A stretch of DNA of 64,000 nt. It comes from an uncultured Chloroflexia bacterium (lineage in GTDB: Bacteria > Chloroflexota > Chloroflexia > QHBQ01 > JADMIH01). This document shows positions 7,964 to 50,945 of this stretch, piece after piece. The DNA lies in the NCBI GenBank assembly GCA_963797095.1, contig CAWCNY010000003.1, positions 960,001 through 1,024,000 of the forward strand, given 5' to 3'. Every line of letters starts with the position of its first letter. Within the stretch, counting starts at the first letter, position 1. Both the position numbers and the translations under genes were made by a program. A model generated the notes under the pieces. The model did no database searches and was not told the origin of the DNA. It saw only the letters and a program-made list of their open reading frames with translations.

Positions 7964-10309
7964 CTAGGTCTTGCCGCCCAGTTGTGCGGCCATCAGTTCA
8001 CCAATGTGCAGTACAATCACCGGCAATTTCTGGGCGTCGATGCCGCCGCGCAGGTGCATAATGCAGCCGGGATTGTCCGTAACGAGGACGCGCGCCCCCG
8101 TTTTTCTGACGTTGTCCAGCTTGCGGGCGAGGATATGCTCGGCTACCTCAGGGCGAGTGACGGAGGTTGAGCCGCCGAAGCCGCAGCAGACCGAGCTCTC
8201 CTCCATTTCACGAAGCTCAAGCCCCATGACCTCTCGAACCAGGCGGCGAGGCGCATCGTCTATGCCAAGCACGTTGGCCGATTGGCAGAAGTTGTGGTAG
8301 GTAACGGGGGAGAAGGGGGAGTGCTCGCGGGCAAGAGCGCCGGGTTCCAATTGTGCGACGGAGTCCATAAAAGTGGTGAAGTCGATCACGCGCTCGGCCA
8401 ACGACCGGGCGCGTGTCTGCCACGACGGCTCGCCCTCGAATAGGCGCTCGTAGTCGTGCAGCATGGCGATGGCGCAGCTTGTGCCGCCCGTCAGGATGTA
8501 ATCGGCGCGCACCTTCTCCAGTTCTTCTATAGTGTAGCTGGCCATCTTGCGCGCGGGGCCGAGTATGCCTGCGTCGAGGGCAGGCAGGCCGCAGCAGTGC
8601 TGCTTTTCGGGCACTATCATGGTGACGCCACACGCATCCAGCACGCGGGCAATCGAAATCGCCATGCGAGGGAATAGGCGGTCGGTGATGCACTGGATGA
8701 AGTAGGCCACGCGCAGGCCACGCGCGTTACTTTGGAGGGGTTTGCCTGTGTAGGGCCTCACTCTTTTCAGGCGGTCGCGCGCCGGGGAGGAGGGAAGGGC
8801 GGGGGGCGTGCGCCAACTCGTGAGGTTGTGGACCATCGGGATGACGTTCGCGCCCACGCGGCCGGTGCGCGTGAATCCCTTGTCGCGCAGAGGGGTCGAG
8901 GCGACTGCCCCCGCGCGCATGGCGATATCCACCAGCCTGGGGTGCGACCAGAACTCCATGGCGGCGTGCATGGGCGAGGCTACGCCCTCTTGCTCGGCCA
9001 CCATGCTGCGCACTTTGAGGATCTGTTGGGGGAGAGGGATGCCGACGGGGCAGACGGTTGCGCAGGCGTTGCACGACACGCACAGCGATTGGGGGCCTGC
9101 GTCCGCCTCAAGGCTATGATGGAAGGGTGTATTGACAAGCCCGATCGCGCCCGAATAGATGTGGCCGAAGACGTGCCCGCCGACCACGCCGTAGGGCGGG
9201 CAGACATTGGCGCAGGCGGCGCACCGTATGCAGCGCAGGGCATCGCGGATGAGAGGGGTGTCGCGCATCCTCATGCGGCCATTGTCGAGGAGGACGATGT
9301 GCATCTCTTTGCCCTGTTCGGGCGGGCCGGACACGAAATTGGTGTAGGAGGTGATAGACTGGCCCGTGGCCGAGCGGGCCAGCAGGCGCAGTTGGAGCAT
9401 AGCGGCCTCGAAGTTGGGCACCAGTTTCTCGACCCCGGCAAGCACCACATGGACGCGTGGCAGGGTAGTCACGAGGCGGGCGTTGCCCTCGTTTTCAATG
9501 AACATGACGGTGCCGCTTTCGGCGATGAGAGCGTTGGCCCCGCTCACGCCAAGCCCGGCCTCAAGGAAGTCGCGGCGCAACTCGGTGCGGGCTACCCCCA
9601 CCTGCTCGGTGATATTGTCGCGGGACACCTCGCGCCCGAGGGTGCCTGTGAAGAGGTCGCCCACCTGCTCGCGGCTTTTGTGGATGGCGGGCATGACCAT
9701 GTGGGAGGGGCGCTCGTGCGAAAGCTGCTGTATCCACTCGCCCAGGTCGGTCTCGATAGCCTGGATGCCGTGTTCTTCCAGCACGCCATTTAGCTCGATC
9801 TCCTCGGAGACCATGGTCTTGCTTTTGACTACGTGCTTGATGTTGTGCTTGCGGCAGAGGTCCAGCACGTAGCGGTTGGCTTCGTCGGCCCCGGCGGCCC
9901 GGTAGACGGTGATGCCGTGGGCTTCGGCGGCGCGCTGGAAGCGATCTATATAGTCGGGCAGATGGTCGATCACCTCGTTCTTGATGGAGGCCAACCTGTT
10001 GCGCATGGCCTCGAACTCAGGGGTGCCATTGGCAAGGGGGAGGGCACGAGTGTGGAGTTCGGAGTGTGGAGTGCGGAGTAGGAGGGCGTCTTCTGGGATA
10101 AGTGCTGGGCGTTCGGGGTTTTCTTCGTAGGCGGCAAAGGCGCTTTCGCGTGAGACGCGCCAGGAACGCTGGAAGTTGAGGAGATTACGACGTAGCTGGG
10201 GGTTGTCGAGGGCGCGACGGTAGCGCTCTTTGAACTGTACAGGCTCGTGGCCTGTGCCTCCCGCACCCGGCGACCTAGGCTGCACGCCGCTTCTTCGTTG
10301 ATCGGGCAT
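7964..10309 (-). CDS. Lactate utilisation protein, LutB(LldF)-LutA(LldE) fusion (LUD domain + 2x[4Fe-4S] + two CCG domains)
   Basis: KSKTMVSEEI, ETDLGEWI, PSHMVMPAIH, CIRCAACANVCP, CVSCNACATVCP followed by QHCCG, YHNFCQ, VCCGFGG, NPGCIMH. Confidence 0.88.
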   Translation of the reverse strand: MPDQRRSGVQPRSPGAGGTGHEPVQFKERYRRALDNPQLRRNLLNFQRSWRVSRESAFAAYEENPERPALIPEDALLLRTPHSELHTRALPLANGTPEFEAMRNRLASIKNEVIDHLPDYIDRFQRAAEAHGITVYRAAGADEANRYVLDLCRKHNIKHVVKSKTMVSEEIELNGVLEEHGIQAIETDLGEWIQQLSHERPSHMVMPAIHKSREQVGDLFTGTLGREVSRDNITEQVGVARTELRRDFLEAGLGVSGANALIAESGTVMFIENEGNARLVTTLPRVHVVLAGVEKLVPNFEAAMLQLRLLARSATGQSITSYTNFVSGPPEQGKEMHIVLLDNGRMRMRDTPLIRDALRCIRCAACANVCPPYGVVGGHVFGHIYSGAIGLVNTPFHHSLEADAGPQSLCVSCNACATVCPVGIPLPQQILKVRSMVAEQEGVASPMHAAMEFWSHPRLVDIAMRAGAVASTPLRDKGFTRTGRVGANVIPMVHNLTSWRTPPALPSSPARDRLKRVRPYTGKPLQSNARGLRVAYFIQCITDRLFPRMAISIARVLDACGVTMIVPEKQHCCGLPALDAGILGPARKMASYTIEELEKVRADYILTGGTSCAIAMLHDYERLFEGEPSWQTRARSLAERVIDFTTFMDSVAQLEPGALAREHSPFSPVTYHNFCQSANVLGIDDAPRRLVREVMGLELREMEESSVCCGFGGSTSVTRPEVAEHILARKLDNVRKTGARVLVTDNPGCIMHLRGGIDAQKLPVIVLHIGELMAAQLGGKT

Positions 10310-40727: not shown

Positions 40728-42131
40728 TCAGGAAAGAGGCAGCTTAGTTGTGTCCGGACCCGTCAGCCACGATAGCAGCCAGTCGACCAACAGGTGCACA
40801 CGGTTACGCCAGGAGGGGATGTGCAATATGTAGTAACCGTGCCACATGATCCATGCCGGCAGGCCCGTGAACGTGAATGGCCCGATCTCGGCTACACCCG
40901 TGTAGTTGCCTAAAAGAGCGAGGTGGCCCAGGGGCTTGAACCGGAATGGTGGAGCCTCCTGTCCACGTACCGCTGCCGCGATGGCCTTGCCCACGTAGGT
41001 ACCCTGGTGTTCGGCGGCCTGCGCTGTGGGCGGAATGGGTTGGTGAGTGACCGCATCATATGCCCATGCTACATCCCCAACTGCGTAGACCTCGGGGTGG
41101 TTGGGCAGGCTAAGATGCTCGTTCACCATCAGCGCGCCGTTCGGAGCGTGCTCACCTGGGAGGGATTGGACAATGTCCGGGGCGGTGATGCCCGCTGCCC
41201 AAAAGAGCGTCCGGCATGGGATCTCACCCTTGTCGGTCAGCACCGCGTGGTCCGTGGCTCCCAACACAGATACGCCGGTCATGACCTCTATACCCTCGGC
41301 CTCCAGTGTTCGCCTTATCGCATCGGAAGCCTTTGGTGTGCCCATCGGCACCACTCGCGGGGCGTGGCCCACGACCACAATCCGCATGGGTTCGTGGGCC
41401 AGCCACGGGTAGCGAGCGAACATGCCTCCCACCAGGTAGGAGTGGACCGTAGCAGCCAGCTCAACGCCTGTATCCCCGGCTCCTCCCACTACAAAAGTCA
41501 GCAATTCCATCCTTTCTGCCGGGTCTGTAGCCCTGTGGGCGTTCTCTATGGCCTCGATGAGGTGGTTGCGTAGCTGCAAGGCGTCGGCGGGATTATGAAA
41601 GAGCAACGCGTGTTCGCGCAGACCGGGAAGGTCGGGGACGGCTGTTCTGCTACCGAGGGCGATCACAAGATAATCATATGGGCGTGGACCCGCAGTGGTG
41701 GTCGCCATCCGTTCCTCCAGGTCGACCCCTGTCACATCGGCATACAGCACATGGAAACTTCGACCCCTCTGGAAGGCTCGCACCGGAACCATCACGTCGC
41801 TTGGATTAGCCCTGCCGTTGGCTACAATCCAGAGGAGCGGAGCAAAGAGCAGGTCGTTGTTGCGGTCGGCGAGGAGAATGCTCGTGCTGGGCTCCCCTCG
41901 CAGCTGGCGGTCCAGCTCAAGCGCAGCGTGAAGGCCCCCGAAGCCCGCGCCCAGGATCAAAATGCGGTGGCGGGCTTCGCGGTACTCTGCCTCGGTCTGG
42001 CTGGTGTGCCACTCAAGCCTAAACAGCTGCCCGTCACTATTCCGCCTGCGGGCGAGAAGGACAAGACCTGCTAAATTTCGCCTGCGGGCGAGAAGGACAA
42101 GACCTGCTAACGCGGCAGTTCCCAGAGCCAC
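40728..42131 (-). CDS. ndh: Type II NADH dehydrogenase-like FAD-dependent oxidoreductase
   Basis: ILGAGFGG, YDYLVIALGS, VVGGAGDTGVELA, WAAG, VYAVGD, PPTAQAAEHQG, AWIMWHGYY; exact start uncertain. Confidence 0.85.
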   Translation of the reverse strand: MALGTAALAGLVLLARRRNLAGLVLLARRRNSDGQLFRLEWHTSQTEAEYREARHRILILGAGFGGLHAALELDRQLRGEPSTSILLADRNNDLLFAPLLWIVANGRANPSDVMVPVRAFQRGRSFHVLYADVTGVDLEERMATTTAGPRPYDYLVIALGSRTAVPDLPGLREHALLFHNPADALQLRNHLIEAIENAHRATDPAERMELLTFVVGGAGDTGVELAATVHSYLVGGMFARYPWLAHEPMRIVVVGHAPRVVPMGTPKASDAIRRTLEAEGIEVMTGVSVLGATDHAVLTDKGEIPCRTLFWAAGITAPDIVQSLPGEHAPNGALMVNEHLSLPNHPEVYAVGDVAWAYDAVTHQPIPPTAQAAEHQGTYVGKAIAAAVRGQEAPPFRFKPLGHLALLGNYTGVAEIGPFTFTGLPAWIMWHGYYILHIPSWRNRVHLLVDWLLSWLTGPDTTKLPLS

Positions 42132-42329: not shown

Positions 42330-42941
42330 CTACTGGCCCATATGCGCCACCGCGGGTTGGTCCATGAAGTGCCAGCGCACGGAATCCTGTGGCCGGTCGG
42401 GCGTGTGCAGCACCAGAATGAACTGCGCCTCTTCGTCTCCGGGGTTGTGGCTGAGGTGGGGCAAACCAGCCTCAAAGAGCAGCATGTCCCCAGGTTCCAG
42501 GATGTAAGTGGCTTCAGCCACCTCATACCTGATGGTGCCCTTTAGGCAGCAGACGAATTCATGGCCGCTGTGGATCACGCGGCCGCTCCCGATGTTCGAG
42601 TGAGGGGCGAGTGTGAGTAAGAAAGGTTGGATCTGTTGTTTCTCCAACTGCATACCCATGCCCTCTATGGCTACGCCCCGGCTGGTTATCAGTGGGCCTT
42701 GCCCGGCCTTCACATAGATGACGCTGGTCTGCTGGTCGGTTTCGAAGAAGTAGCTCATCTTGACATTGAGGGCGGTGGCCAGTCGCTGCAAAGTAGCCAC
42801 GTTGGGCGAGATCTCGTCGCGCTCAATGAGACTGACTGCGTTCAGCGACAGCCCGCACTGTGCCGCCAACTCTTTCTGAGATAAATTCAGCTCCCTGCGC
42901 AGTTCGCGCAACCTGGCACCGACCGAGAATTGGTTATCCAC
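42330..42941 (-). CDS. XRE-family HTH regulator with cupin sensor domain
   Basis: LRELRRELNLSQKELA...SLIERDEISPNVATL; cupin HSGHEFVCCLKG...LEPGD...PH. Confidence 0.92.
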   Translation of the reverse strand: MDNQFSVGARLRELRRELNLSQKELAAQCGLSLNAVSLIERDEISPNVATLQRLATALNVKMSYFFETDQQTSVIYVKAGQGPLITSRGVAIEGMGMQLEKQQIQPFLLTLAPHSNIGSGRVIHSGHEFVCCLKGTIRYEVAEATYILEPGDMLLFEAGLPHLSHNPGDEEAQFILVLHTPDRPQDSVRWHFMDQPAVAHMGQ

Positions 42942-42952
42942 CGCTTACCCCC

Positions 42953-43064
42953 TTGACAAATTACCAATATAGTGGTATATATTATGTAGAAGATGGCATA
43001 TATGACTAGTAAGTTAGGAAAAGTGCCCAAATTATTGGTAATGACGCTTCCCTGCACTATTATA
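42953..43064. promoter_or_regulatory. Divergent promoter region with repeated imperfect palindromes
   Basis: TTGACA (42953)-17nt-TATATA on +; TGGTATAAT on - (~43059-43067); TTACCAATATAGTGGTAT (42961) and inverted copy TGCCCAAATTATTGGTAA (43024). Confidence 0.55.
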
Positions 43065-43183
43065 CCACTTCTTACGGCGCTTGCGGTGATTGGTCGCGAG
43101 AATATCAATGCGCTCACAATTTGTATGGGAACAGGCGATTTCGATGATAGGAAGGCCGTTCCCGGAAAGCTGGAGGCGATGTT

Positions 43184-43423
43184 ATGGAAGGAATCAGCAT
43201 TACCAGAGAGTGCGCTGACCAGCGGAGCTTCTGCTGGCCCCCTCTCATGGAGTTGATCCGCAGCCTGAGGCTGGCACAAACAGGAGATGTGTTGGCGATT
43301 CTCGCCAACGACGAAGAAAGCAAAGAGGTGATTCCGCTCTGGGTCGACAAAGCCGGAGAGGAACTCCTCGGCATCGAGACACTCGGCGACGTGACGCGTT
43401 TCGTCGTACGCAAAGTACGATAA
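43184..43423 (+). CDS. TusA-family sulfurtransferase (variant motif)
   Basis: SFCWPPLMELIR...GDVLAIL..D..S...IP.WV.KAG...F.VRK; RBS GGAGG. Confidence 0.75.
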   Translation: MEGISITRECADQRSFCWPPLMELIRSLRLAQTGDVLAILANDEESKEVIPLWVDKAGEELLGIETLGDVTRFVVRKVR

Positions 43424-43434
43424 GGAGAAATCAA

Positions 43435-43698
43435 ATGGCTACTATGACTGATATTGACCTGACGACTATTAGTGCTGCCAAGACTGTCGATGCCAGGGCG
43501 ATGGCTTGCCCCGGCCCCCTGCTGGAGGCCAAGAAAGGGATCGGCCTGGTCAGGGTCGGCGAGGTACTGGAGATCTGGTCGGGCGATGCCGGTACAAAGA
43601 AGGATATGCCGATGTGGTGCGCCAAGGTTGGACATGATTTTCTCGGCGTAGTTCCCGCCGACGGCTACGACCGCCTTCTCATTCGTCGAATGAAGTAG
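43435..43698 (+). CDS. tusA: TusA-family sulfurtransferase
   Basis: VDARAMACPGPLLEAKK...GEVLEI...D.GT..D.P.W....GH; RBS AAGGAG. Confidence 0.9.
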   Translation: MATMTDIDLTTISAAKTVDARAMACPGPLLEAKKGIGLVRVGEVLEIWSGDAGTKKDMPMWCAKVGHDFLGVVPADGYDRLLIRRMK

Positions 43699-43779
43699 CG
43701 CTCTCTCAGAGCGCGGCCAGGTCTGGCAGGTTGTCAGGTCCTACAGCCTGCCTGCTGAGACCCGGAAGGATGTGCACCT

Positions 43780-44307
43780 ATGCCGGATAAATCACAAACG
43801 GCCACCATGCCGAAGATCCTTATCCTGGGGACGCTATCGGGCGGCTACCGGGGAGCCGACTCCACCGGGCAGTCGCACCTGGAGTACCCGGCCAACACAT
43901 ACATACTGCCAATCAGAACTGCGGCCATTTTCCCTCCACGCTTCTATCTGGACGCTTTTCGGCGCGGCATCGACGGCATCATTGTGATGTACAGCGGTAC
44001 CGATAGCCCATACAAAGGCGACTCCGAGCGGACCGGCCAGATCATCAACGAAACCTACAAGTCGATGAAGGAACAAGGCCTTGACACGAGGCGTCTGCGC
44101 CTGACGGCGATCTGCACAGTGTGCATGCGCCCGTTCCTCAAAGAGATCCACGAGATGAACGCCCTGCTCGACGAGATCGGCCCGGCGCTGGAGGTTCGGG
44201 ATGCCGAAGGCGGGGTGCGGGATTCCCATTTGAGTCCCGCAGTCCTCACACATGAAGCAAGCCTTCGGCACTCCGCAGTGAAAGGACAATCGTATGGCAC
44301 CCAATAG
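43780..44307 (+). CDS. MvhD/FlpD-like hydrogenase iron-sulfur subunit homologue (Cys-depleted)
   Basis: Y.GAD..G.....YP, AF..G.DGI.V, G.D..RL.L..ICTVC..PF pattern; overlaps hdrA-like gene. Confidence 0.75.
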   Translation: MPDKSQTATMPKILILGTLSGGYRGADSTGQSHLEYPANTYILPIRTAAIFPPRFYLDAFRRGIDGIIVMYSGTDSPYKGDSERTGQIINETYKSMKEQGLDTRRLRLTAICTVCMRPFLKEIHEMNALLDEIGPALEVRDAEGGVRDSHLSPAVLTHEASLRHSAVKGQSYGTQ

Positions 44308-45643
44308 CCTACAGGTAGATGTGCTGGTTATCGGGGGCGGGATCGCCGGTATGCAGGCGTCTCTGGACCTCGCCGACCAGGGTTACCGGGTGGCCCTGGT
44401 GGAGAAAAGCCCAAGCGTCGGGGGCAAAATGATCGGGCTGAGCAAGGTCTTCCCCACCCTCGACTGCGCGAGCTGTATCACGACCCCTAAAATGTCGGCT
44501 GTCGCTCACCACGATAATATCGACCTGATAACCTACAGCGAGGTGCAGTCTCTGTCGCGCGACGAGGGCGGCTTTGTCGCCCAGGTGTTGAAGAAGCCAC
44601 GCTATGTGAACGAAGACGATTGCACCGGCTGCCGCTCTTGCGAGCTTGCCTGCCCCCTCGATCTCCCCGACGGCGAGAACGAGTTTGGTCGCACCGCGCA
44701 CCGGGTGGCATACATCCCCTTCCCCACGGCTGTGCCCCAGAAAGCACTTATCGATATCGACCACTGCATCTTTTGCGGCAAGTGCATCCAGGCCTGCCCG
44801 GCGAACGCTATCGACTTCAACCAGCAACCTCAAAATATCGAGGTGCGGGCCGATACCATTATCCTGGCCACAGGCTTTGAAACAACCCCTCGCGATGCCA
44901 AAAAGGAATACGGCTCCGGCAAGCTGCGAAATGTGATCGACGGCCGGATGATGGAGCGTTTGTTGGCCCCCACCGGTCCTTATGGACGCGTGCTGAGGCC
45001 GTCCGACGGCAAGCAGCCCTCTTCCATAGCATACGTTCAATGTGCAGGCTCGCGTGACCTGACGCTCGGTGTGCCATATTGCTCGCGGGTCTGCTGCATG
45101 TACGCCATCAAGCAATCGATCCTCCTCTCCGGCACTCTGCCCATGGCCGATATCACCATTTACTACATGGACATACGCACGTTCGGCAAGGGCTACGAGC
45201 AGTTCTACCAGAGCGCTAAAGCGATGGGCATCGAGTTCGTCAGAGGCAAGGTGGCGCGCGTAAGCGAAGACTCTGACGAGAATCCCGTCGTGCGGGTGGA
45301 ATTGATCGAGGACGATTCGAGGGTAGTCGAGCGCAAGCACGACCTGGTAGTGCTCTCGACGGGCATGCTGCCGGGGTGGAACTCGGAGAACATATTCGGA
45401 GTGGCAAAGGCTGACGACGGCTTCATTCAGATACCCAATTGCAATGTCGCTCCATCAGTGACGATGCGGGAGGGCGTCTTCGCCACAGGCACAGCGACCG
45501 GCCCCATGGATATTGTGGACAGCATCATGACGGCAGGGGCCGCGGCTGCCGAGGTTGCGGCCTACTTGCAGGCCAAGCGTGCCGGCGCTCCGGTGCCAAG
45601 CACCGCTGAAGTCACACCGGAGAGGAGTCTTGTATATGTCTGA
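44294..45643 (+). CDS. hdrA: Heterodisulfide reductase subunit A-like flavoprotein (short form)
   Basis: IGGGIAG, KVFPTLDCASCI, two CxxCxxCxxxCP motifs, CAGSRD...YCSRVCCMYAIK, YMDIR. Confidence 0.92.
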   Translation: MAPNSLQVDVLVIGGGIAGMQASLDLADQGYRVALVEKSPSVGGKMIGLSKVFPTLDCASCITTPKMSAVAHHDNIDLITYSEVQSLSRDEGGFVAQVLKKPRYVNEDDCTGCRSCELACPLDLPDGENEFGRTAHRVAYIPFPTAVPQKALIDIDHCIFCGKCIQACPANAIDFNQQPQNIEVRADTIILATGFETTPRDAKKEYGSGKLRNVIDGRMMERLLAPTGPYGRVLRPSDGKQPSSIAYVQCAGSRDLTLGVPYCSRVCCMYAIKQSILLSGTLPMADITIYYMDIRTFGKGYEQFYQSAKAMGIEFVRGKVARVSEDSDENPVVRVELIEDDSRVVERKHDLVVLSTGMLPGWNSENIFGVAKADDGFIQIPNCNVAPSVTMREGVFATGTATGPMDIVDSIMTAGAAAAEVAAYLQAKRAGAPVPSTAEVTPERSLVYV

Positions 45644-47783
45644 GACATCTGAAATGCGTGATATGACGCAGCAGCAGCCTACAGATACGCCTGTGGTTGC
45701 GGCTGCCGGTGACGCAGACTCCCCAACTTACACCAACTCAAACCCGCGTATCGGCGTCTACGTGTGCCACTGCGGAGGCAACATCAGCGATACGGTTGGC
45801 TGCCAGGAGGCCGCCGAGGCCCTGGGCAACCTACCGGACGTGGTGGTGGCGCGTGACTACCAGTTTATGTGCTCGGACCCCGGCCAGAAGCTGATTACAG
45901 ACGACATCAACGAAAACGGGGTCAACCGGGTGGTGATCGGTGCCTGCTCTCTCTTCCTGCATGAGCAGACCTTCCGCAAAACGGTGGAACGCGCCGGGCT
46001 AAACCCGTACCTGTACTACCATATCGGCCTGCGGGAGCAGGATAGCTGGGTGCACCACAGCGACCGGAACGCGGCGACCGATAAGGCCATCCGCATGATG
46101 TCCGCCGGGGTGGCTCGCGCCCGCCTCATGAAGCCCCTTGAGCCGGTGAAACTGGATGCCGACAAGCACGCGCTTGTGATCGGGGGCGGCGTGGCCGGGC
46201 TGCGCTCGGCGCTCTCCATAGCTCGGCGCGGCTTGCGCGTCACGCTGATCGAGAAGAGCCAGTTCCTGGGCGGCAATATGGCGCGATGGGACCACGTCTT
46301 TCCGACCGAGGAGGACGCTCGCGGTCTGCTGGACGCCCTCATAAAGGATGTGCTGGCAGAGCCTAACATCACGGTCCACACGGGCGCCGAACTGATATCC
46401 GCCAAAGGCTACGTGGGCAACTTTGAGATGCGCATTCGCCAGCAGCGACGCGGCGTTGCCGAGGATTTTACAGCCCTCGCCGAAGCGGCTGCAGTGTGCC
46501 CTGTCGAGGTACCGGACGAGTTCAACTTCGGCATGAGCAAGCACAAGGCCATTTACCGGCCTTACGAGGGGTGCTACCCTGCCGGTCCCACCATTGATTG
46601 GGAGCACTGCACCAAATGCGGGGAGTGCCTCAAGGTGGCCCCCAAAGGGAGCATTCGCCTGCATTCGGAGCCGGTCGAGTTTGACCTGAAGGTGGGCGCG
46701 GTGGTAGTGGCCACGGGTTTCCGCCCTTATGAGCCTGCCCACGGCGAGTTTGGCTATGGCGAGTACCCCGGCGTGGTGACGCTACCTCAGTTGGAGCGGC
46801 TCCTATCCCAGGACGGCCCGACGGGTGGGGAACTGGTATGGCACGGGCGGCCTGTGCGCAGCCTGGCGCTGATCCACTGCGTGGGCAGCCGCCAGTTGGA
46901 TGGAGTACATGCACCCGGCCTCGATGGCAGGCTGAATGAGTACTGCTCTCGCGTGTGCTGCACGGCCAGTCTTGCCGCGGCGAACCGAATCCGCGAACGC
47001 TTTCCGCAGGTGAACGTGTACGACCTCTACCGCGATATACGCACATATGGGCGCGGTCATGAGGAGTATTACACCAGGGCATCCAAAAACCGGGTGACCT
47101 TCCTGCGCTATTTAGCCGAGGACGGCCCGGCGGTCGCACCCGCACCGCCACCCGACGAGCACCCCCTTCTGGTGAGAGTAAAAGACCAGCTTACATGGGG
47201 CGAGGAAATCGATCTGCCGGTGGACCTGGTCGTGCTGGCGGTTGGGATGGTGCCGTCCCCGGTGCAAGACCTGATCGACATGCTAAAGGTGCCGCAGGGC
47301 ACCGACCGCTTCCTGCTGGAAGTGCACCCCAAGCTCCGCCCCGTCGAGACCGCCGTGACCGGCGTATTGCTGGCGGGCACGGCCCAGGGCCCGATGAACA
47401 TACAGGAGAGTTGCGCGGCTGCCGAGGCCGCGGCCTCCAAGGTGGCGGTGCTGTTGGGCCGGGGCAAAGTCGAACTTGAGCCTTACGTGGCCCAGGTAGA
47501 CCCGGAGCGCTGCCAGGGCACCGGGGAGTGCGTGCGAGCATGTCCTCAGGAGGATGCCATCCGCCTGGAGACCTTCACCGAGAATGGCAAGACGTTCAGG
47601 CGGGCCGTGGTTACGGCGGCCAACTGCAACGGCTGCGGTGTATGTGTGTCGGCCTGCCCCAGCCGGGCCATCGACGTGCAGGGCTGGCGATTGGACGAGT
47701 TCGAAGCGATGGTCGAGGCGATCACCGCGGAACCACCCGCCGGTGAGCCTGCCCACAGACCTGCCATGGAGGCAGTGGTATGA
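45636..47783 (+). CDS. hdrA: Heterodisulfide reductase subunit A-like flavoprotein (long, QmoB-like without fused MvhD)
   Basis: IGVYVCHCGGNI, MCSDPG, GACS, IGGGVAG, CVGSR...YCSRVCC, HPKLRPVET, C-terminal ferredoxin motifs; start placed at ATG 45636 after AGGAG. Confidence 0.92.
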   Translation: MSETSEMRDMTQQQPTDTPVVAAAGDADSPTYTNSNPRIGVYVCHCGGNISDTVGCQEAAEALGNLPDVVVARDYQFMCSDPGQKLITDDINENGVNRVVIGACSLFLHEQTFRKTVERAGLNPYLYYHIGLREQDSWVHHSDRNAATDKAIRMMSAGVARARLMKPLEPVKLDADKHALVIGGGVAGLRSALSIARRGLRVTLIEKSQFLGGNMARWDHVFPTEEDARGLLDALIKDVLAEPNITVHTGAELISAKGYVGNFEMRIRQQRRGVAEDFTALAEAAAVCPVEVPDEFNFGMSKHKAIYRPYEGCYPAGPTIDWEHCTKCGECLKVAPKGSIRLHSEPVEFDLKVGAVVVATGFRPYEPAHGEFGYGEYPGVVTLPQLERLLSQDGPTGGELVWHGRPVRSLALIHCVGSRQLDGVHAPGLDGRLNEYCSRVCCTASLAAANRIRERFPQVNVYDLYRDIRTYGRGHEEYYTRASKNRVTFLRYLAEDGPAVAPAPPPDEHPLLVRVKDQLTWGEEIDLPVDLVVLAVGMVPSPVQDLIDMLKVPQGTDRFLLEVHPKLRPVETAVTGVLLAGTAQGPMNIQESCAAAEAAASKVAVLLGRGKVELEPYVAQVDPERCQGTGECVRACPQEDAIRLETFTENGKTFRRAVVTAANCNGCGVCVSACPSRAIDVQGWRLDEFEAMVEAITAEPPAGEPAHRPAMEAVV

Positions 47784-48115
47784 ACGCACAAAGCAAAGAA
47801 GCTAAAGAAGCGGCCAGAGAGGCAGCCAGGCAGCGCACGCAGATGCTGTTGGAGTTGCGCAAGCAGCACGAGCAGCAAGTGAAAGAAGCCCAGGAGCTTC
47901 TGAGGGCTCAACAGACGGCCCGCAAGACGCTGCAGCAAGCGCTGCAAGGGGGGCCGCGCTCGATCCCGCAACTTGCCGGGGAGACCGGTATGGCCTCTAA
48001 TGAGGTGCTGTGGCACATGGCCGCTATGAAGAAATATGGCGTGGTGGAGGAGATGGGCATGGACGAGGATGGCGAGTACTACCTGTACAGCCTGTCAAAG
48101 GAGGGGAAGCCATGA
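47780..48115 (+). CDS. Small winged-helix protein
   Basis: Coiled N-terminus then GPRSIPQLA..TG....EVLWHMAAMKKYGVV.E...Y.Y; ATGA overlaps with both neighbours. Confidence 0.75.
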   Translation: MNAQSKEAKEAAREAARQRTQMLLELRKQHEQQVKEAQELLRAQQTARKTLQQALQGGPRSIPQLAGETGMASNEVLWHMAAMKKYGVVEEMGMDEDGEYYLYSLSKEGKP

Positions 48116-49320
48116 GCGCCACACACACGATAGACACCACCGATGCTGTGAAGGCCACCGGTCACCGCGCCGACCCGAGCTTCCTGCTGGAGCTGAAGAA
48201 ATACGGGGAAGTAAACATCGAGTCCTGCTTCAACTGCGGCAACTGCACCGCGATATGCCCTCTCTCCACGGACGAGACGCCCTTCCCGCGCGGCAACATC
48301 CGCATGGTGCAGGTGGGCCTGCGCGACAACCTGCTGGAGAGCGTAGACCCATGGCTCTGCTACTACTGCGGCGATTGTTCTGCAACCTGCCCGCGGCAGG
48401 CCGAGCCCGCCGAAGCCCAGATGACCATGCGCCGCTGGCTCACCGCTCGTTACGATTGGACCGGTCTGGCACGCAAGTTCTACACGTCCAAAGTCTGGGA
48501 GCTCGGCTCGGTGCTCTTGCTGGCCGCCCTGGTGGTGGGCATGTTCGTTATCTGGCACGGGCCGGTTGTGACCGACCACGTGGCTCTCAATACCTTCGCC
48601 CCGGCCAGCGTCGTGGAGATTGGCGACCTGATCATGCTCGGCGGCCTTTCCTTCTTCCTGCTGTCCAACGTCTTCCGGATGTGGCGATTCACGCTGGGCC
48701 GGGACGAGCGGGCCAACTTGCCGCTCTGGGCCTACGTGACCGAAGCCTGGCAGTTGGTCTACCATTTCGCGACCCAAATCCGCTTCTCGAAGTGCGACGA
48801 GGAGGCAGGGTTGCACTTCTGGCAGAAGGCGCGCTGGCGCAACCACTGGCTGCTGGTGAGTGGCTACGTGGTGATGTTCGTGCTGGTCGTCTTCTTCCTG
48901 GAGTGGTTCCAGACCGATAACTACTACCCGATCTGGCATCCCCAGCGCTGGCTTGGCTATTACGCGGCGGCTGTGCTGCTGTTTGGCGCAGGCACAGCCA
49001 TCTGGGGGCGCATCAAGAAGGACCAGCAGATGCACCGCTTCTCTCACCTCAGCGACTGGATGTTCCCGGTACTCCTCTTCTTGACGGCCCTCACCGGCCT
49101 TCTGGTCAATATCTTCCGCTATATGGACCTGCCACTGGCAACCTACATTATCTATGTGGCCCACCTGGCGATTCTGACGCCCATGCTGGTGCTGGAAGTG
49201 CCGTTTGGGAAATGGTCCCACCTGGCCTACCGGCCCGTGGCCATATATCTTCAGGCGCTGAAGGAGAAAGCGCGCCAACAACAAGCAATTGCTGCCGGAG
49301 TACCCGCCCCGGCCGATTGA
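48112..49320 (+). CDS. QmoC-like subunit: 2x[4Fe-4S] (HdrC-like) domain plus multi-TM cytochrome b-like domain
   Basis: CFNCGNCTAICP, PWLCYYCGDCSATCPR, ~6 TM helices with His (NHWLL, HLAIL, PFGKWSHLAYRP). Confidence 0.85.
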   Translation: MSATHTIDTTDAVKATGHRADPSFLLELKKYGEVNIESCFNCGNCTAICPLSTDETPFPRGNIRMVQVGLRDNLLESVDPWLCYYCGDCSATCPRQAEPAEAQMTMRRWLTARYDWTGLARKFYTSKVWELGSVLLLAALVVGMFVIWHGPVVTDHVALNTFAPASVVEIGDLIMLGGLSFFLLSNVFRMWRFTLGRDERANLPLWAYVTEAWQLVYHFATQIRFSKCDEEAGLHFWQKARWRNHWLLVSGYVVMFVLVVFFLEWFQTDNYYPIWHPQRWLGYYAAAVLLFGAGTAIWGRIKKDQQMHRFSHLSDWMFPVLLFLTALTGLLVNIFRYMDLPLATYIIYVAHLAILTPMLVLEVPFGKWSHLAYRPVAIYLQALKEKARQQQAIAAGVPAPAD

Positions 49321-49324
49321 GAGG

Positions 49325-49397
49325 CAAAATGTAATGCGTAAAACGTAAAACGTAATGCGTAGCAGTCGTTAGTCGTCAACTGACAACCGATAACTAA
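49325..49397. repeat. Degenerate heptamer tract
   Basis: AAAATGT AATGCGT AAAACGT AAAACGT AATGCGT then AGTCGTT/AACTGAC-type units. Confidence 0.6.
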
Positions 49398-49410
49398 AAG
49401 GAGGTTTCCC

Positions 49411-49773
49411 GTGTCTCAGAAAATGGTAGTTGTATGCAACCACGCCGATCCGAGCGGCATAATGCCCTCGCTGATCTTCGCTTCGTCGGGCATCGCCCTC
49501 GACTACGATGTGCACATGTTCTTCTGCCCAGGCGGGGCGCAGGCGCTGGTCAAAGGCGAGCTGGAGAAGCTCGGAACGCCGAAGGGGATGCCCAACCCTG
49601 TCGAGCTGTTCAACACGATACTGGACCAGGGCGGCGAGGTCGTATTCTGCGAGCTTGCCGTCGAGAGCAAGGATATCAACCCTGAGACGCTGCGCGATGA
49701 GCGCATCGTCGTCGAGAAAGTGCCTCCCTTCCTGATGGGTGCCGAGGGAGCGGGCATGACCTACGTTTTCTAG
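49411..49773 (+). CDS. DsrE/DsrF-like family protein
   Basis: Short alpha/beta protein: LIFA...A...DV.MFF..G...L.KG...G.EV.FCELA; RBS AAGGAGG. Confidence 0.75.
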   Translation: MSQKMVVVCNHADPSGIMPSLIFASSGIALDYDVHMFFCPGGAQALVKGELEKLGTPKGMPNPVELFNTILDQGGEVVFCELAVESKDINPETLRDERIVVEKVPPFLMGAEGAGMTYVF

Positions 49774-49781
49774 CGTCTCCA

Positions 49782-49836
49782 GGATTTTGACCGCGAGCTC
49801 TCAGGCTGAGTTCCGGAGAGCTCGCGGTCAAAATCC
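49782..49836. terminator. Long perfect hairpin (21-bp arms) after the dsrE-like gene
   Basis: GGATTTTGACCGCGAGCTCTC-13nt-GAGAGCTCGCGGTCAAAATCC; no U-tract. Confidence 0.5.
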
Positions 49837-49850
49837 CAGTGGGTAAGCGC

Positions 49851-50507
49851 ATGAGCACTCAAGCACCAGCACCAGCACCAGCACCAGCACCAGCGCCAAC
49901 GCAAGCGCAATGCGACGCACCGGCTAACCCGTCCGTGGGGAGCAGGCTGCGCGCACGCCGGCGGGAGCGTGGTCTCTCGCAGAGAGAGCTGGCGGAGCGG
50001 GCAGGTGTATCACTGAACTGCATCAGCCTGATCGAGCGTGACGAGATCTCGCCCAACGTGGCTACCCTGCGGCGACTGGCCTCCGCGCTCAACGTGAAAA
50101 TGAGCTACTTCTTCGAGGCCGGCGATCACGCTAATGTCCTTCACGTGATAGAAGCGGCCGATCGCCTTGGCCTCAGCCAGCCCACCTACGACAGCCAGGC
50201 CGCACATGGTACAGGCTACAAAGTGTCGCTTGAGGACGTATGTTCCAGCCTGGGAGAGCAGGCGATACAGCCCTGTGCGCTCACGCTCAAGCCTCACGCC
50301 TCGGCAGGCGGTTATGCGGCGCAAACCGGCCACGGGTTCGTCTATTGTCTGCGGGGCAGTTTGAAATGCGACCTGGATAACGAGAGCTATCTACTTGAAC
50401 CGGGAGAAGCGCTGCTCTTTGAAGGCACCGGTCCGCACAGGTGCGAAAACCCGGGCGAGACTGAGGCGCACTTTGTGCTTGTACTTCAGCCCCCTGAGGG
50501 CGCTTAG
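49851..50507 (+). CDS. XRE-family HTH regulator with cupin domain (paralog of 42330-42941)
   Basis: LSQRELAERAGVSLNCISLIERDEISPNVATL...LNVKMSYFFE; cupin GFVYCLRG...LEPGE...PH; N-terminal (AP)n from GCACCA repeats. Confidence 0.9.
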   Translation: MSTQAPAPAPAPAPAPTQAQCDAPANPSVGSRLRARRRERGLSQRELAERAGVSLNCISLIERDEISPNVATLRRLASALNVKMSYFFEAGDHANVLHVIEAADRLGLSQPTYDSQAAHGTGYKVSLEDVCSSLGEQAIQPCALTLKPHASAGGYAAQTGHGFVYCLRGSLKCDLDNESYLLEPGEALLFEGTGPHRCENPGETEAHFVLVLQPPEGA

Positions 50508-50945
50508 TGCAGGGCACACCCGCCGGGCCATCCCCCTCCTGAACTGGAGCCTGCCGGGGGTCCGGCGCGCCGCCATTCGCTGGCCGATGACTTCAGTCTC
50601 CCCCGGCCATGGTAGCCAACGATTTTTCACCGATTTGTAACGCCCTGTATGCCCGGTCGTATACCTTTCCCTGCTACACTACATGTGGTGGAGTTTGCGC
50701 CATAGCCACTCGACCGGGCATCAGCCAGGCTCCCGACAGAAGTGTAGCTGTTCAACGAGGCATGCGCGGGGGCTTTTCCGGCTTGCAGGTGATTACATGA
50801 GCGCCGGTGCCCTTGAGGATGGGCATTTATGCAATGAGCTGCCAACGATGAAACCGGCTTTTAGCGGGGCCCGGTTTTTTGTTTTCCGGGTATGCACCCT
50901 CAAGAACGTTGAGAACGTGAGCAACTGGGTGCTGAAGGAGGACCC

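Follow-up and report, generated by a model that had tools for sequence, protein, structure and literature searches.

A widespread operon for a putative TusA/DsrE-linked, Qmo-like HdrA membrane complex in an uncultured Chloroflexia bacterium

The genome assembly of an uncultured soil-dwelling Chloroflexia bacterium (6.02 Mb in 8 contigs, 93.24% complete) contains, within the stretch of 64,000 nucleotides analysed here (C3:960001-1024000, hereafter the window), a row of eight co-directional genes for two TusA-type sulfur carriers, an MvhD-like protein, two different HdrA flavoproteins, a small winged-helix protein, a QmoC-like membrane subunit and a DsrE-like protein. This operon is a real, intact and strongly conserved system, and it belongs to a widespread family that is biochemically uncharacterised. 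With about even confidence, it is proposed that its products constitute a membrane-bound Qmo-like complex which carries out quinone-linked redox chemistry on sulfur bound to TusA and DsrE, and which does not serve adenosine 5'-phosphosulfate (APS) reductase. The gene row was read from a six-frame listing of open reading frames (ORFs) together with Pfam and NCBIfam scans, and is as follows.

42330-42941, minus strand: XRE helix-turn-helix (HTH) and cupin regulator 1, divergent from the operon (Pfam HTH_3 1.2e-15, Cupin_2 2.6e-15).
42942-43183, no strand: AT-rich divergent intergenic region between regulator 1 and TusA1.
43184-43423, plus strand: TusA1, 79 amino acids, with an atypical CWPP motif (Pfam TusA 5.2e-11, profile positions 12-70 only).
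43435-43698, plus strand: TusA2, with the canonical CPGP motif (Pfam TusA 1.3e-17).
43780-44307, plus strand: MvhD/FlpD-like subunit (Pfam FlpD 6e-15).
44294-45643, plus strand: short HdrA (QmoA-like), 449 amino acids (NCBIfam HdrA2 475.7 bits, model positions 139-575 of 777).
45636-47783, plus strand: long HdrA (QmoB-like), about 715 amino acids, with no fused MvhD domain (555 bits to HdrA 5odc_A).
47780-48115, plus strand: winged-helix protein, 111 amino acids (weak matches to Pfam HTH_20/HTH_24 and NCBIfam ArsR, all below cut-off).
48112-49320, plus strand: QmoC-like membrane subunit, 402 amino acids (199.2 bits with NCBIfam qmoC; cut-off 300).
49411-49773, plus strand: DsrE-like protein, 120 amino acids (Pfam DrsE_2 26.9 bits, Pfam DsrE 23.7 bits, each slightly above cut-off).
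49839-50507, plus strand: XRE-HTH and cupin regulator 2, beginning 66 nt after dsrE (Pfam HTH_3 5.2e-17, Cupin_2 4.2e-11).
50856-50871, plus strand: terminator-like hairpin with a run of T, located behind regulator 2 (from a consensus scan only, which gave 9 sites in this region where 6.2 were expected).

Successive overlaps of 14, 8, 4 and 4 nt in the ORF coordinates join the five genes from mvhD to qmoC, and the eight genes are bracketed by the two paralogous XRE-cupin regulators, which share 49% mutual identity. In all these respects the arrangement given in a first-pass annotation of this DNA was borne out by the ORFs and by the Pfam and NCBIfam matches. Both of the TusA genes that it listed are present, but the first is the 79-amino-acid ORF at 43184-43423 and not the longer ORF at 42993-43256.

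Relatives of the operon were collected with the QmoC-like protein from one genome per species. The scan returned 551 confirmed relatives; the counts of genome loci given here rest on the best 80, of which 65 have at least 5 kb of sequence upstream of qmoC. In 59 of these 65 loci, qmoC is preceded on the same strand by genes for TusA, the MvhD-like protein, short HdrA and long HdrA. By record titles, the 59 core loci comprise 41 from Chloroflexota and 18 from Desulfobacterota-type bacteria, Bacteroidales, Lentimicrobiaceae, Phycisphaerae, Krumholzibacteriales, Elusimicrobiales and an unclassified metagenome-assembled genome (MAG). Among the exceptions, L070 and L087 do contain TusA and MvhD-like genes, though outside the distance or identity windows applied; in L058 the MvhD-like gene is at the very start of the contig; and in L060, L069 and L085 the QmoC-like gene stands in another context. 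A DsrE gene detectable by BLAST is found within 4 kb after qmoC in 45 of the 67 loci with flanking sequence, and in 43/43 of those from Chloroflexota, while five loci from Bacteroidota, Krumholzibacteriota or similar bacteria have a different DsrE-like gene upstream of TusA. An independent scan of metagenome contigs, seeded with the motif of the MvhD-like protein, placed TusA directly upstream of the MvhD-like gene in 65/65 loci with at least 600 nt of flank. Where at least 5.8 kb of downstream sequence was present, short HdrA, long HdrA, the winged-helix gene and the QmoC-like gene followed in 15/15 loci, and DsrE in 14/15. The arrangement reappears, gene by gene, in other genomes and is therefore far from accidental; and with TusA and, in most of them, DsrE linked to it in the genome and the metagenome loci alike, the earlier view of a self-contained operon linked to sulfur carriers is upheld. 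Small shares of the operon are also contained in two soil-metagenome DNA runs of one study; no RNA dataset is listed for it.

A different arrangement was observed in L059, L069 and L085, where the QmoC-like gene lies between two HdrA-like genes of about 590 amino acids, followed by a canonical MvhD with all its usual cysteines and then by two genes that by eye resemble those for a [NiFe] hydrogenase's small and large subunits. Such an arrangement would amount to a Qmo-like complex linked to hydrogenase and lacking TusA.

Within its own genome the operon is single-copy, as a tblastn search revealed no other MvhD-like, HdrA, winged-helix or QmoC-like gene and no close DsrE paralogue. Of 151 sampled genomes of the class, this one among them, only four contain a QmoC-like match at E <= 1e-60. 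Three unpublished genomes without such a match, namely G018 and G036 (of the same genus) and G102 (of the same order), are counted in the class and genus tallies. Uniqueness of the operon to this member of its genus was ruled out by two congeners, G093 and G042, whose proteins matched the QmoC-like subunit of the window at 37-40% in the class scan. G093 (L197) has the complete cassette, with identities of 82% for regulator 1, 57% for TusA1, 78% for TusA2, 78% for the MvhD-like protein, 85% for short HdrA, 81% for long HdrA, 69% for the winged-helix protein, 92% for DsrE and 61% for regulator 2, and only 35% for the QmoC-like subunit. In G042 (L196, equivalent to G042:C20:28000-42000) only the QmoC-like gene, DsrE and regulator 2 are left, beside unrelated genes, and regulator 2 keeps its matching position in both congeners (61-63%). 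Just upstream, at 8658-9056 of L196 on the minus strand, an ORF resembles, by eye, the C-terminal end of a transposition helper of IstB type, a hint that the operon of G042 was disrupted by insertion. The genome of L010, from another family of the same order, has the full cassette, including both XRE-type regulators (regulator 1 in the matching position at 71%), minus TusA1, and its QmoC is 77-78% identical to that of the window.

All genes but qmoC are closer to those of congener G093 than to those of L010 (TusA2 ties), and qmoC is closer to L010; from these identities we infer that the membrane-subunit gene alone may have been exchanged in one lineage. The three loci L117 (12796-14067), L197 (3571-4722) and L196 (8947-10101) encode a second QmoC-like subtype, 31-38% identical to the protein of the window and scoring 211-223 bits on the qmoC model. 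It likewise consists of an HdrC-like domain and a membrane domain, and is encoded at the qmoC position of operons in which the remaining genes show 60-92% identity to their counterparts in the window; 5 of the 15 long metagenome loci contain it as well. One subtype of the membrane subunit seems able to replace another.

The MvhD-like protein was originally annotated as an MvhD homologue, and this stands for its FlpD domain and its fold: the AlphaFold2 model (predicted local distance difference test, pLDDT, 83.7) matches MvhD (5odc_D) with a template-modelling (TM) score of 0.86 normalised to the target. It does not stand for the cysteines, since both the canonical N-terminal CxxC and the GCHxGDC cysteines of the MvhD [2Fe-2S] site are missing, and the protein of the window has two cysteines in all, C112 and C115, forming an 'AICTVC' pair. 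This pair is kept in 49 of the 52 members of the protein cluster and is invariant in a 47-row alignment; the three members without it are the canonical MvhD proteins of hydrogenase-linked loci. Positions 47 and 76, which are cysteine in canonical MvhD, are threonine and serine in the window, and cysteine in 33/52 and 29/52 members, respectively. In the model C112 and C115 come directly after strand 106-110, and residues 47 and 76 after strands 40-45 and 66-71, a topology which would put the pair at the sheet edge that bears the cluster site in canonical MvhD. An invariant CxxC on an MvhD scaffold is a candidate thiol or persulfide site.

The two HdrA proteins are mirror images of each other, having lost complementary sets of clusters. 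Long HdrA aligns end-to-end with HdrA 5odc_A (residues 36-688 against 3-641 of 654), and 58/58 orthologues retain four N-terminal cysteines, four cysteines near the flavin adenine dinucleotide (FAD) domain and seven cysteines of the C-terminal ferredoxin domain, the second cysteine of the first motif being always missing. The DCxxC pair is lost, with FPTEEDARG replacing FPTxDCxxC, and the inserted ferredoxin domain is degenerate, its cysteines being kept in only 13-44 of the 58. Short HdrA (408.8 bits to HdrA 8rvv_A) consists of the FAD domain and an inserted ferredoxin domain for two [4Fe-4S] clusters, without the N- and C-terminal domains; 16 cysteines are conserved in 47/47 orthologues, all of which retain DCxxC, both inserted CxxCxxCxxxCP motifs and four flavin-proximal cysteines, so that DCxxC and most of the inserted-ferredoxin cysteines lost from long HdrA are kept only here. 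It is tempting to suggest that the short and long proteins form a heterodimer that jointly rebuilds one asymmetric HdrA dimer. In L117 (10758-12590) a long HdrA of 610 amino acids lacks the inserted ferredoxin domain altogether, in line with the degeneration of this domain seen throughout the family. In four further loci, namely L058, L070, L083 and one more (cluster c34, about 900 amino acids), a GltD/NfnB-like NAD(P)H module (Fer4_20 and Pyr_redox_2) is inserted in short HdrA, and would provide those variants with an NAD(P)H port.

The QmoC-like subunit combines an HdrC-like domain for two [4Fe-4S] clusters with a NarI/HdrE-like transmembrane domain of about five hydrophobic segments. The eight iron-sulfur (FeS) cysteines and His245, His351 and His370 are present in 60/60 sequences, and further histidines in 50-56 of 60; a solved relative (HdrC) is available for the N-terminal part only. 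The winged-helix gene is translationally coupled between long hdrA and qmoC and occupies that position in 58/65 loci. Its product has no cysteine, and the AlphaFold2 model (pLDDT 94.7) has an N-terminal hairpin of two helices (3-29 and 31-55) followed by a winged helix-turn-helix. It may be an embedded regulator or a subunit, both of which its fixed, coupled position would allow. A fold search gave generic MarR/ArsR matches only, with no relative of DsrD type or of any other specific kind, and an Atlas look-up returned only ArsR/winged-helix or unnamed clusters.

The sulfur carriers retain their reactive cysteines. Cys25 of TusA2 is kept in 39/39 aligned orthologues and Cys80 of the DsrE-like protein in 57/58; no close relative of the latter was found among solved structures. 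In TusA1, Cys17 aligns with the catalytic cysteine of TusA, with CWPP in place of the CPxP motif. The closest paralogue of TusA1, at 53% identity, is the second TusA of a locus on contig C2 described below; TusA1 has no orthologue in L010. A docking prediction for TusA2 on the MvhD-like protein gave a score of 0.04 against a mark of 0.32, and counts neither for nor against contact.

The resemblance to QmoABC raises the question of whether this is simply an ordinary Qmo complex serving APS reductase. The overall architecture does match, and some relatives bear the name 'QmoC' in metagenome sources; the proteins returned by searches of the protein collection were MAG or metagenome entries only, with generic names. 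The sequences point firmly the other way. The best match to aprA in the genome scores 23.5 bits against a cut-off of 641.75, and the qmoC score of the membrane subunit (199 bits) is well below its cut-off. Compared with the canonical proteins of three Desulfobacterota-type genomes, the subunits of the window are 34-36% (QmoA), 26-27% (QmoB) and 25-29% (QmoC) identical, against 57-63% for short HdrA, 46-50% for long HdrA and 48-50% for the QmoC-like subunit when compared with the TusA-linked orthologues from such genomes. Of the Desulfobacterota carriers, 5/5 encode a canonical QmoC (491-511 bits) and, separately, the TusA-linked paralogue (187-199 bits). In a quick QmoC tree, drawn with midpoint rooting, five canonical sequences are split from the 80 loci and the window with support 100, the window being sister to L010. 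For HdrA, a tree was built with 37 rows, taken from 16 core loci (of 59) that were chosen for taxonomic spread and from three canonical QmoA and three canonical QmoB. It separates canonical QmoA and QmoB from the TusA-linked short and long proteins with support 96, and is likewise quick, unrooted and without an HdrA outgroup. The separate clades agree with the proposal, in the available text of PMC10504309, that QmoAB arose independently at least twice.

Searches for aprA and dsrA were extended to the genomes that contain 48 of the 59 core loci (41 from Chloroflexota and 7 others), the 11 of Desulfobacterota type being left out because sulfate reducers are expected to carry these genes. A match to aprA above cut-off was found in 2/48 carriers (0/41 Chloroflexota) and a match to dsrA in 5/48 (4/41 Chloroflexota); in the others, which as MAGs are incomplete, the genes were not found. 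As far as sequence can tell, the ordinary QmoABC explanation appears refuted, and we attach next to no weight to it. These results also answer what the first-pass annotation had asked of the genome: neither aprA nor dsrA was found in the 93.24% that is present, and the subunits branch outside canonical Qmo in both trees. Its description of a mixture distinct from both canonical Qmo and sulfur-oxidising heterodisulfide reductase-like (sHdr) systems is likewise sustained by the separate clades and by the lack of HdrB and of the lipoate-binding protein LbpA in the operon.

Of the genes said to be missing from the window, aprAB, dsrAB, hdrB and those for lipoate-binding proteins, none is linked to the operon, but the window does contain one protein with CCG domains. 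This is a fusion of LUD, Fer4 and two CCG domains (781 amino acids; 7964-10309, minus strand), 34 kb off; it is LutB/LutA-like, is unrelated to the operon and is not an operon-adjacent HdrB. The CCG-domain proteins of the genome are all encoded away from the operon, none of whose own products has this domain, and the only GCV_H-family protein of the genome is on contig C6, so that no lipoate-binding protein is linked to the operon. Neither dsrA, nor a DsrC/TusE domain, nor a NIR_SIR siroheme domain was found in the genome at its present completeness. As NIR_SIR was not found, no known siroheme sulfite or nitrite reductase appears to be encoded, and the organism may be dependent on reduced sources of sulfur.

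Sulfur bound to carriers is taken as the redox partner of the complex on two grounds: only carriers of TusA and DsrE type travel with the core across phyla, with their reactive cysteines conserved; and no terminal enzyme recurs nearby, Apr, Dsr and DsrC not having been found in this genome. The wider context of the family fits, with a TsuA-type transporter in 16 loci and an ArsR regulator in 31. The subunits would assemble into one complex, in which ports may be assigned by analogy with solved Hdr complexes, the HdrC-like domain being the high-potential arm (haem b and quinone) and MvhD the third port. QmoC would exchange electrons with the quinone pool via haems b and two [4Fe-4S] clusters, and the heterodimer of short and long HdrA would relay them through FAD and FeS clusters. 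The MvhD-like subunit would sit where MvhD feeds HdrA in methanogens, and its invariant CxxC would react with persulfide delivered by TusA or DsrE. In the reductive direction, which can be put forward tentatively and with clearly less confidence than the choice of partner, sulfane sulfur on the carriers would be converted to sulfide, perhaps by confurcation of electrons from quinol and from a low-potential donor, ferredoxin, at the C-terminal ferredoxin domain of long HdrA. In the variants of four loci, the fused GltD-like module could offer NAD(P)H an alternative port. The purpose might be disposal or detoxification of sulfane sulfur.

Several considerations weigh against this proposal. The system is known from sequence, and the chemistry suggested for it is a prediction. 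None of its subunits has the CCG/noncubane-cluster site at which HdrB and DsrK carry out disulfide chemistry, so that the placing of catalysis is guesswork; the pair C112/C115 may ligate a cluster instead of acting as a redox-active dithiol, given the cysteines found at positions 47 and 76 of many relatives; and the winged-helix protein may simply be a regulator. The taxonomic labels of the carriers are the titles of MAG records, and contamination of MAGs is possible. The standard potential of menaquinone is about -74 mV and that of the S0/HS- couple about -270 mV, by which quinol alone cannot reduce a persulfide; the reductive direction consequently needs the putative second donor. Finally, the oxygen reductases of this genome and its locus for a type III sulfide:quinone oxidoreductase (SQR) would fit an oxidative role equally well.

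This last point deserves elaboration. The genome has two haem-copper oxidase loci and a cytochrome bd, and is therefore able to respire oxygen; the picture in the first-pass annotation of a sugar-using heterotroph living under anoxia accordingly needs softening. On contig C2, at about 641800-645500 (L096:5826-9479), a second sulfur locus encodes TusA, a DsrE2-like protein of 193 amino acids, a DsrE-like protein of 139 amino acids, a second TusA and a flavoprotein of 380 amino acids, adjoined by a PocR-type regulator; the flavoprotein scores 380 bits on the type III SQR model, below the cut-off of 525. Sulfide or carrier persulfide might then be the electron donor, entering via the MvhD-like subunit and passing to quinone, possibly with bifurcation to quinone and ferredoxin. 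All the parts required by analogy with HdrABC-MvhAGD are present, namely the MvhD entry, the HdrC high-potential arm and the C-terminal ferredoxin domain; the quinone pool could drain to oxygen through the oxidases, with an NDH-2 type dehydrogenase encoded next to the operon; the C2 locus would make sulfane sulfur; and about -270 mV lies midway between quinone and ferredoxin. On the other hand, SQR already couples sulfide to quinone, and oxidation past the sulfane level needs a site of the HdrB/LbpA, DsrAB or persulfide dioxygenase (PDO) kind that is lacking in the operon. The canonical cluster cysteines of MvhD are missing, and most carriers are, by their record titles, Anaerolineales, Bacteroidales and Desulfobacterota, which are typically anaerobes. 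We regard this opposite direction as unlikely overall. Its specifically bifurcating form, in which persulfide on TusA or DsrE (about -270 mV) would donate via the CxxC and the HdrA heterodimer would split the electrons between quinone and ferredoxin, appears less likely still. An oxidative or bifurcating direction is nevertheless a serious rival to the reductive one, above all in this oxygen-respiring, SQR-bearing genome.

The neighbourhoods of related loci bear on the nature of the substrate. Recurrent extra genes were collected by clustering a simple greedy ORF call, by which small genes are undercounted. They include a LysR regulator near the operon in 40 loci; an upstream ArsR regulator with two conserved cysteines in 31 (BigR is its second-best NCBIfam match, below cut-off); a transporter of TsuA/YeeE type in 16, placed just downstream of qmoC and accompanied by a further TusA and DsrE; a PAS-domain sigma-54 activator in 13, mostly of Desulfobacterota type; and a TusA-like gene without cysteine in 7. 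In some Anaerolineales (L018, L021, L029, L040, L066 and neighbours; clusters c26, c15 and c16) there is in addition a VKOR-family membrane protein, checked with Pfam, in 5 loci, and by eye a radical-SAM-like protein in 7 loci and a small NifX/NifB-like protein in 7 loci. The transporter scores 319 bits on the NCBIfam TsuA model (cut-off 400) and 122 bits on that of the selenium transporter YedE, and matches Pfam Sulf_transp at 1.4e-86.

Given the trio of transporter, TusA and DsrE just after qmoC in those 16 loci, the substrate might be derived from thiosulfate, as a TusA thiosulfonate supplied by a TsuA/YeeE importer or from tetrathionate, and be cleaved reductively. The couple involved is very low, at about -400 mV, and the genome of the window has no detectable YeeE/Sulf_transp homologue and no siroheme sulfite reductase that was found to deal with the released sulfite; the transporter is also missing from most loci. 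There is precedent in Metallosphaera, where DsrE3A and TusA form Cys-S-thiosulfonates beside an Hdr-like complex (available text of PMC4175335), and YeeE and YeeD bind thiosulfate on conserved cysteines, as summarised in the accessible part of PMC13047784. On balance a thiosulfate-derived substrate seems improbable here. We hold much the same low opinion of the suggestion that the complex serves a terminal enzyme encoded elsewhere, with TusA and DsrE being accessories for maturation or thiolation and not substrates. Canonical Qmo, according to the available text of PMC10504309, has no catalytic site of its own and hands its electrons to a separate enzyme, and the present operon is likewise without a recognisable one; but across phyla only TusA, the DsrE-like protein, the winged-helix protein and regulators travel with the core, no candidate enzyme recurs, the genome gave no match above cut-off to aprA and none to dsrA, DsrC or NIR_SIR, and the carrier cysteines are conserved.

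The carriers might instead handle selenium, in a YedE/YedF-like context, with the complex reducing selenium species for SelD. TusA1 scores about equally on the NCBIfam models of YedF (20.0 bits) and TusA (19.7 bits), neither score coming near its cut-off; the genome's selD gene contains one in-frame TGA (C2:243079-243930), as do most of the 131 SelD-positive genomes of the class; and SelD is present in 44/48 carrier genomes. The lineage probably uses selenocysteine. But with SelD in 131/151 genomes of the class sample, of which only 4 are QmoC-like positive, there is no enrichment; selD lies on another contig than the operon; and the linked transporter of related loci fits TsuA far better than YedE. 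This role is considered very improbable.

The regions flanking the operon were inspected for further clues. The NDH-2 type dehydrogenase (Pyr_redox_2 and NDH2_C; 40728-42131, minus strand) is directly behind regulator 1 on the same strand, and a quinone-reducing enzyme is thus the operon's neighbour; its orthologues occur in 3/24 congeners, in none with syntenic flanks, and the borders of an insertion could not be drawn. The downstream neighbours are a PNPOx-like protein, a flavodoxin-like protein and a malic enzyme-PTA fusion. In the divergent intergenic region, TTGACA at 42954 is followed after a 17-nt spacer by TATATA, as seen by eye. The scan found promoter-like sites at 43035-43063 (plus strand) and 43008-42981 (minus strand), 2 against 2.9 expected and so not above chance, and neither the promoter-like nor the terminator-like sites of the region clearly exceed chance. 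Also by eye, the 9-nt sequence ATTACCAAT at 42961-42969 recurs as its exact reverse complement ATTGGTAAT at 43034-43042, 64 nt apart, and the two may be half-sites recognised by the XRE-cupin regulators; at spacings of up to 40 nt, the repeat tool detected no inverted repeat in the promoter region.

If the proposal is correct, bacteria supposed to be fermenters or plain heterotrophs, among them many Anaerolineales, Bacteroidales and Elusimicrobiota, would own a quinone-linked machine for protein-bound sulfur, as would sulfate reducers beside their real Qmo, and cryptic sulfur cycling in soils, sediments and digesters would contain an unaccounted term. If the bifurcating alternative were true, fermenters and soil heterotrophs would make low-potential reductant from sulfide or sulfane sulfur, or run the reverse for sulfur disposal. 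The family also provides a natural experiment in the rewiring of an HdrA bifurcation module, with a split homodimer, MvhD cysteines swapped for a CxxC and an exchangeable membrane subunit. New details described here are the invariant CxxC of the MvhD-like subunit, the complementary loss of HdrA clusters and a qmoC subtype differing from that of a congener.

Comparison with known systems helps to place the operon. Closest in overall plan is canonical QmoABC, which likewise has two HdrA-derived flavoproteins (one short, one long), an HdrC-like/haem-b membrane subunit and no HdrB, a connection to quinone being presumed in both. The operon of the window differs in being linked to TusA and DsrE and not to aprBA, in occurring in genomes without aprA, and in having a separate, cysteine-depleted MvhD-like protein and an extra winged-helix gene. 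With HdrABC-MvhAGD (PDB 5odc, 8rvu and 7bkb) it shares the full HdrA domain order in long HdrA, the fold of MvhD and the HdrC-like N-terminus of QmoC. In contrast to that complex, the operon encodes neither HdrB nor a hydrogenase; two diverged paralogues with complementary cluster loss stand in for the HdrA homodimer, the cysteines of the MvhD cluster have given way to a CxxC at another place in the protein, and a membrane haem domain terminates the high-potential arm. In DsrMK(JOP) and HdrDE, a haem-b subunit linked to quinol or methanophenazine feeds the reduction of a sulfur-sulfur bond (in the DsrC trisulfide and CoM-S-S-CoB), and the catalytic subunit, DsrK or HdrD, has a CCG domain, with no flavoprotein. 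The operon of the window, unlike these, has no CCG domain and two HdrA flavoproteins, and no DsrC was found in the genome.

The sHdr systems also encode an HdrA-type flavoprotein together with TusA and sulfur transferases of the DsrE family (available text of PMC11094781), and a precedent in Chloroflexota is the cluster of Thermomicrobium roseum (PMC6776052, likewise in its accessible part). The present operon lacks their HdrB/HdrC pairs, LbpA and Etf, and has instead a membrane QmoC and two different HdrAs. The TsuA/TsuB (YeeE/YeeD) system and the YTD/DsrEFH type II cluster resemble the trio of transporter, TusA and DsrE beside 16 related loci, whereas the genome of the window has no YeeE homologue, and the published YTD clusters are discussed, in the available text of PMC13293266 and PMC13047784, with DsrAB and DsrC, which were not found here.

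No description of a TusA-linked Qmo-like complex was found in the open full-text literature, with subscription papers and supplementary files outside the search; as far as their accessible text goes, PMC12142623, PMC13047784, PMC13293266, PMC13490349 and PMC6776052 deal with canonical Qmo, the YTD/DsrEFH type II cluster or sHdr. The nearest published relative is the 'type II Qmo' of Neukirchen et al. (2023, ISME J, PMC10504309), named there, in the part available, as closer to HdrA, occurring in hosts whether these have Dsr and Apr or lack them, and of unknown function. By this published wording the window shares its HdrA-like character (555 bits for long and 409 bits for short HdrA) and the absence of detected aprA and dsrA. 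The examples named in the same text, Ammonifex degensii and 'Ca. Vulcanisaeta moutnovskia', are sulfate reducers. The accessible text of that paper draws no link to TusA, DsrE, an MvhD-like protein or a winged-helix gene. The epithet 'undescribed' in the first-pass annotation should be softened, given that a type of complex of this description already has a name. The operon is best described as encoding a TusA/DsrE-linked, type-II-Qmo-like HdrA membrane complex, the parts of which have been partly anticipated in print.

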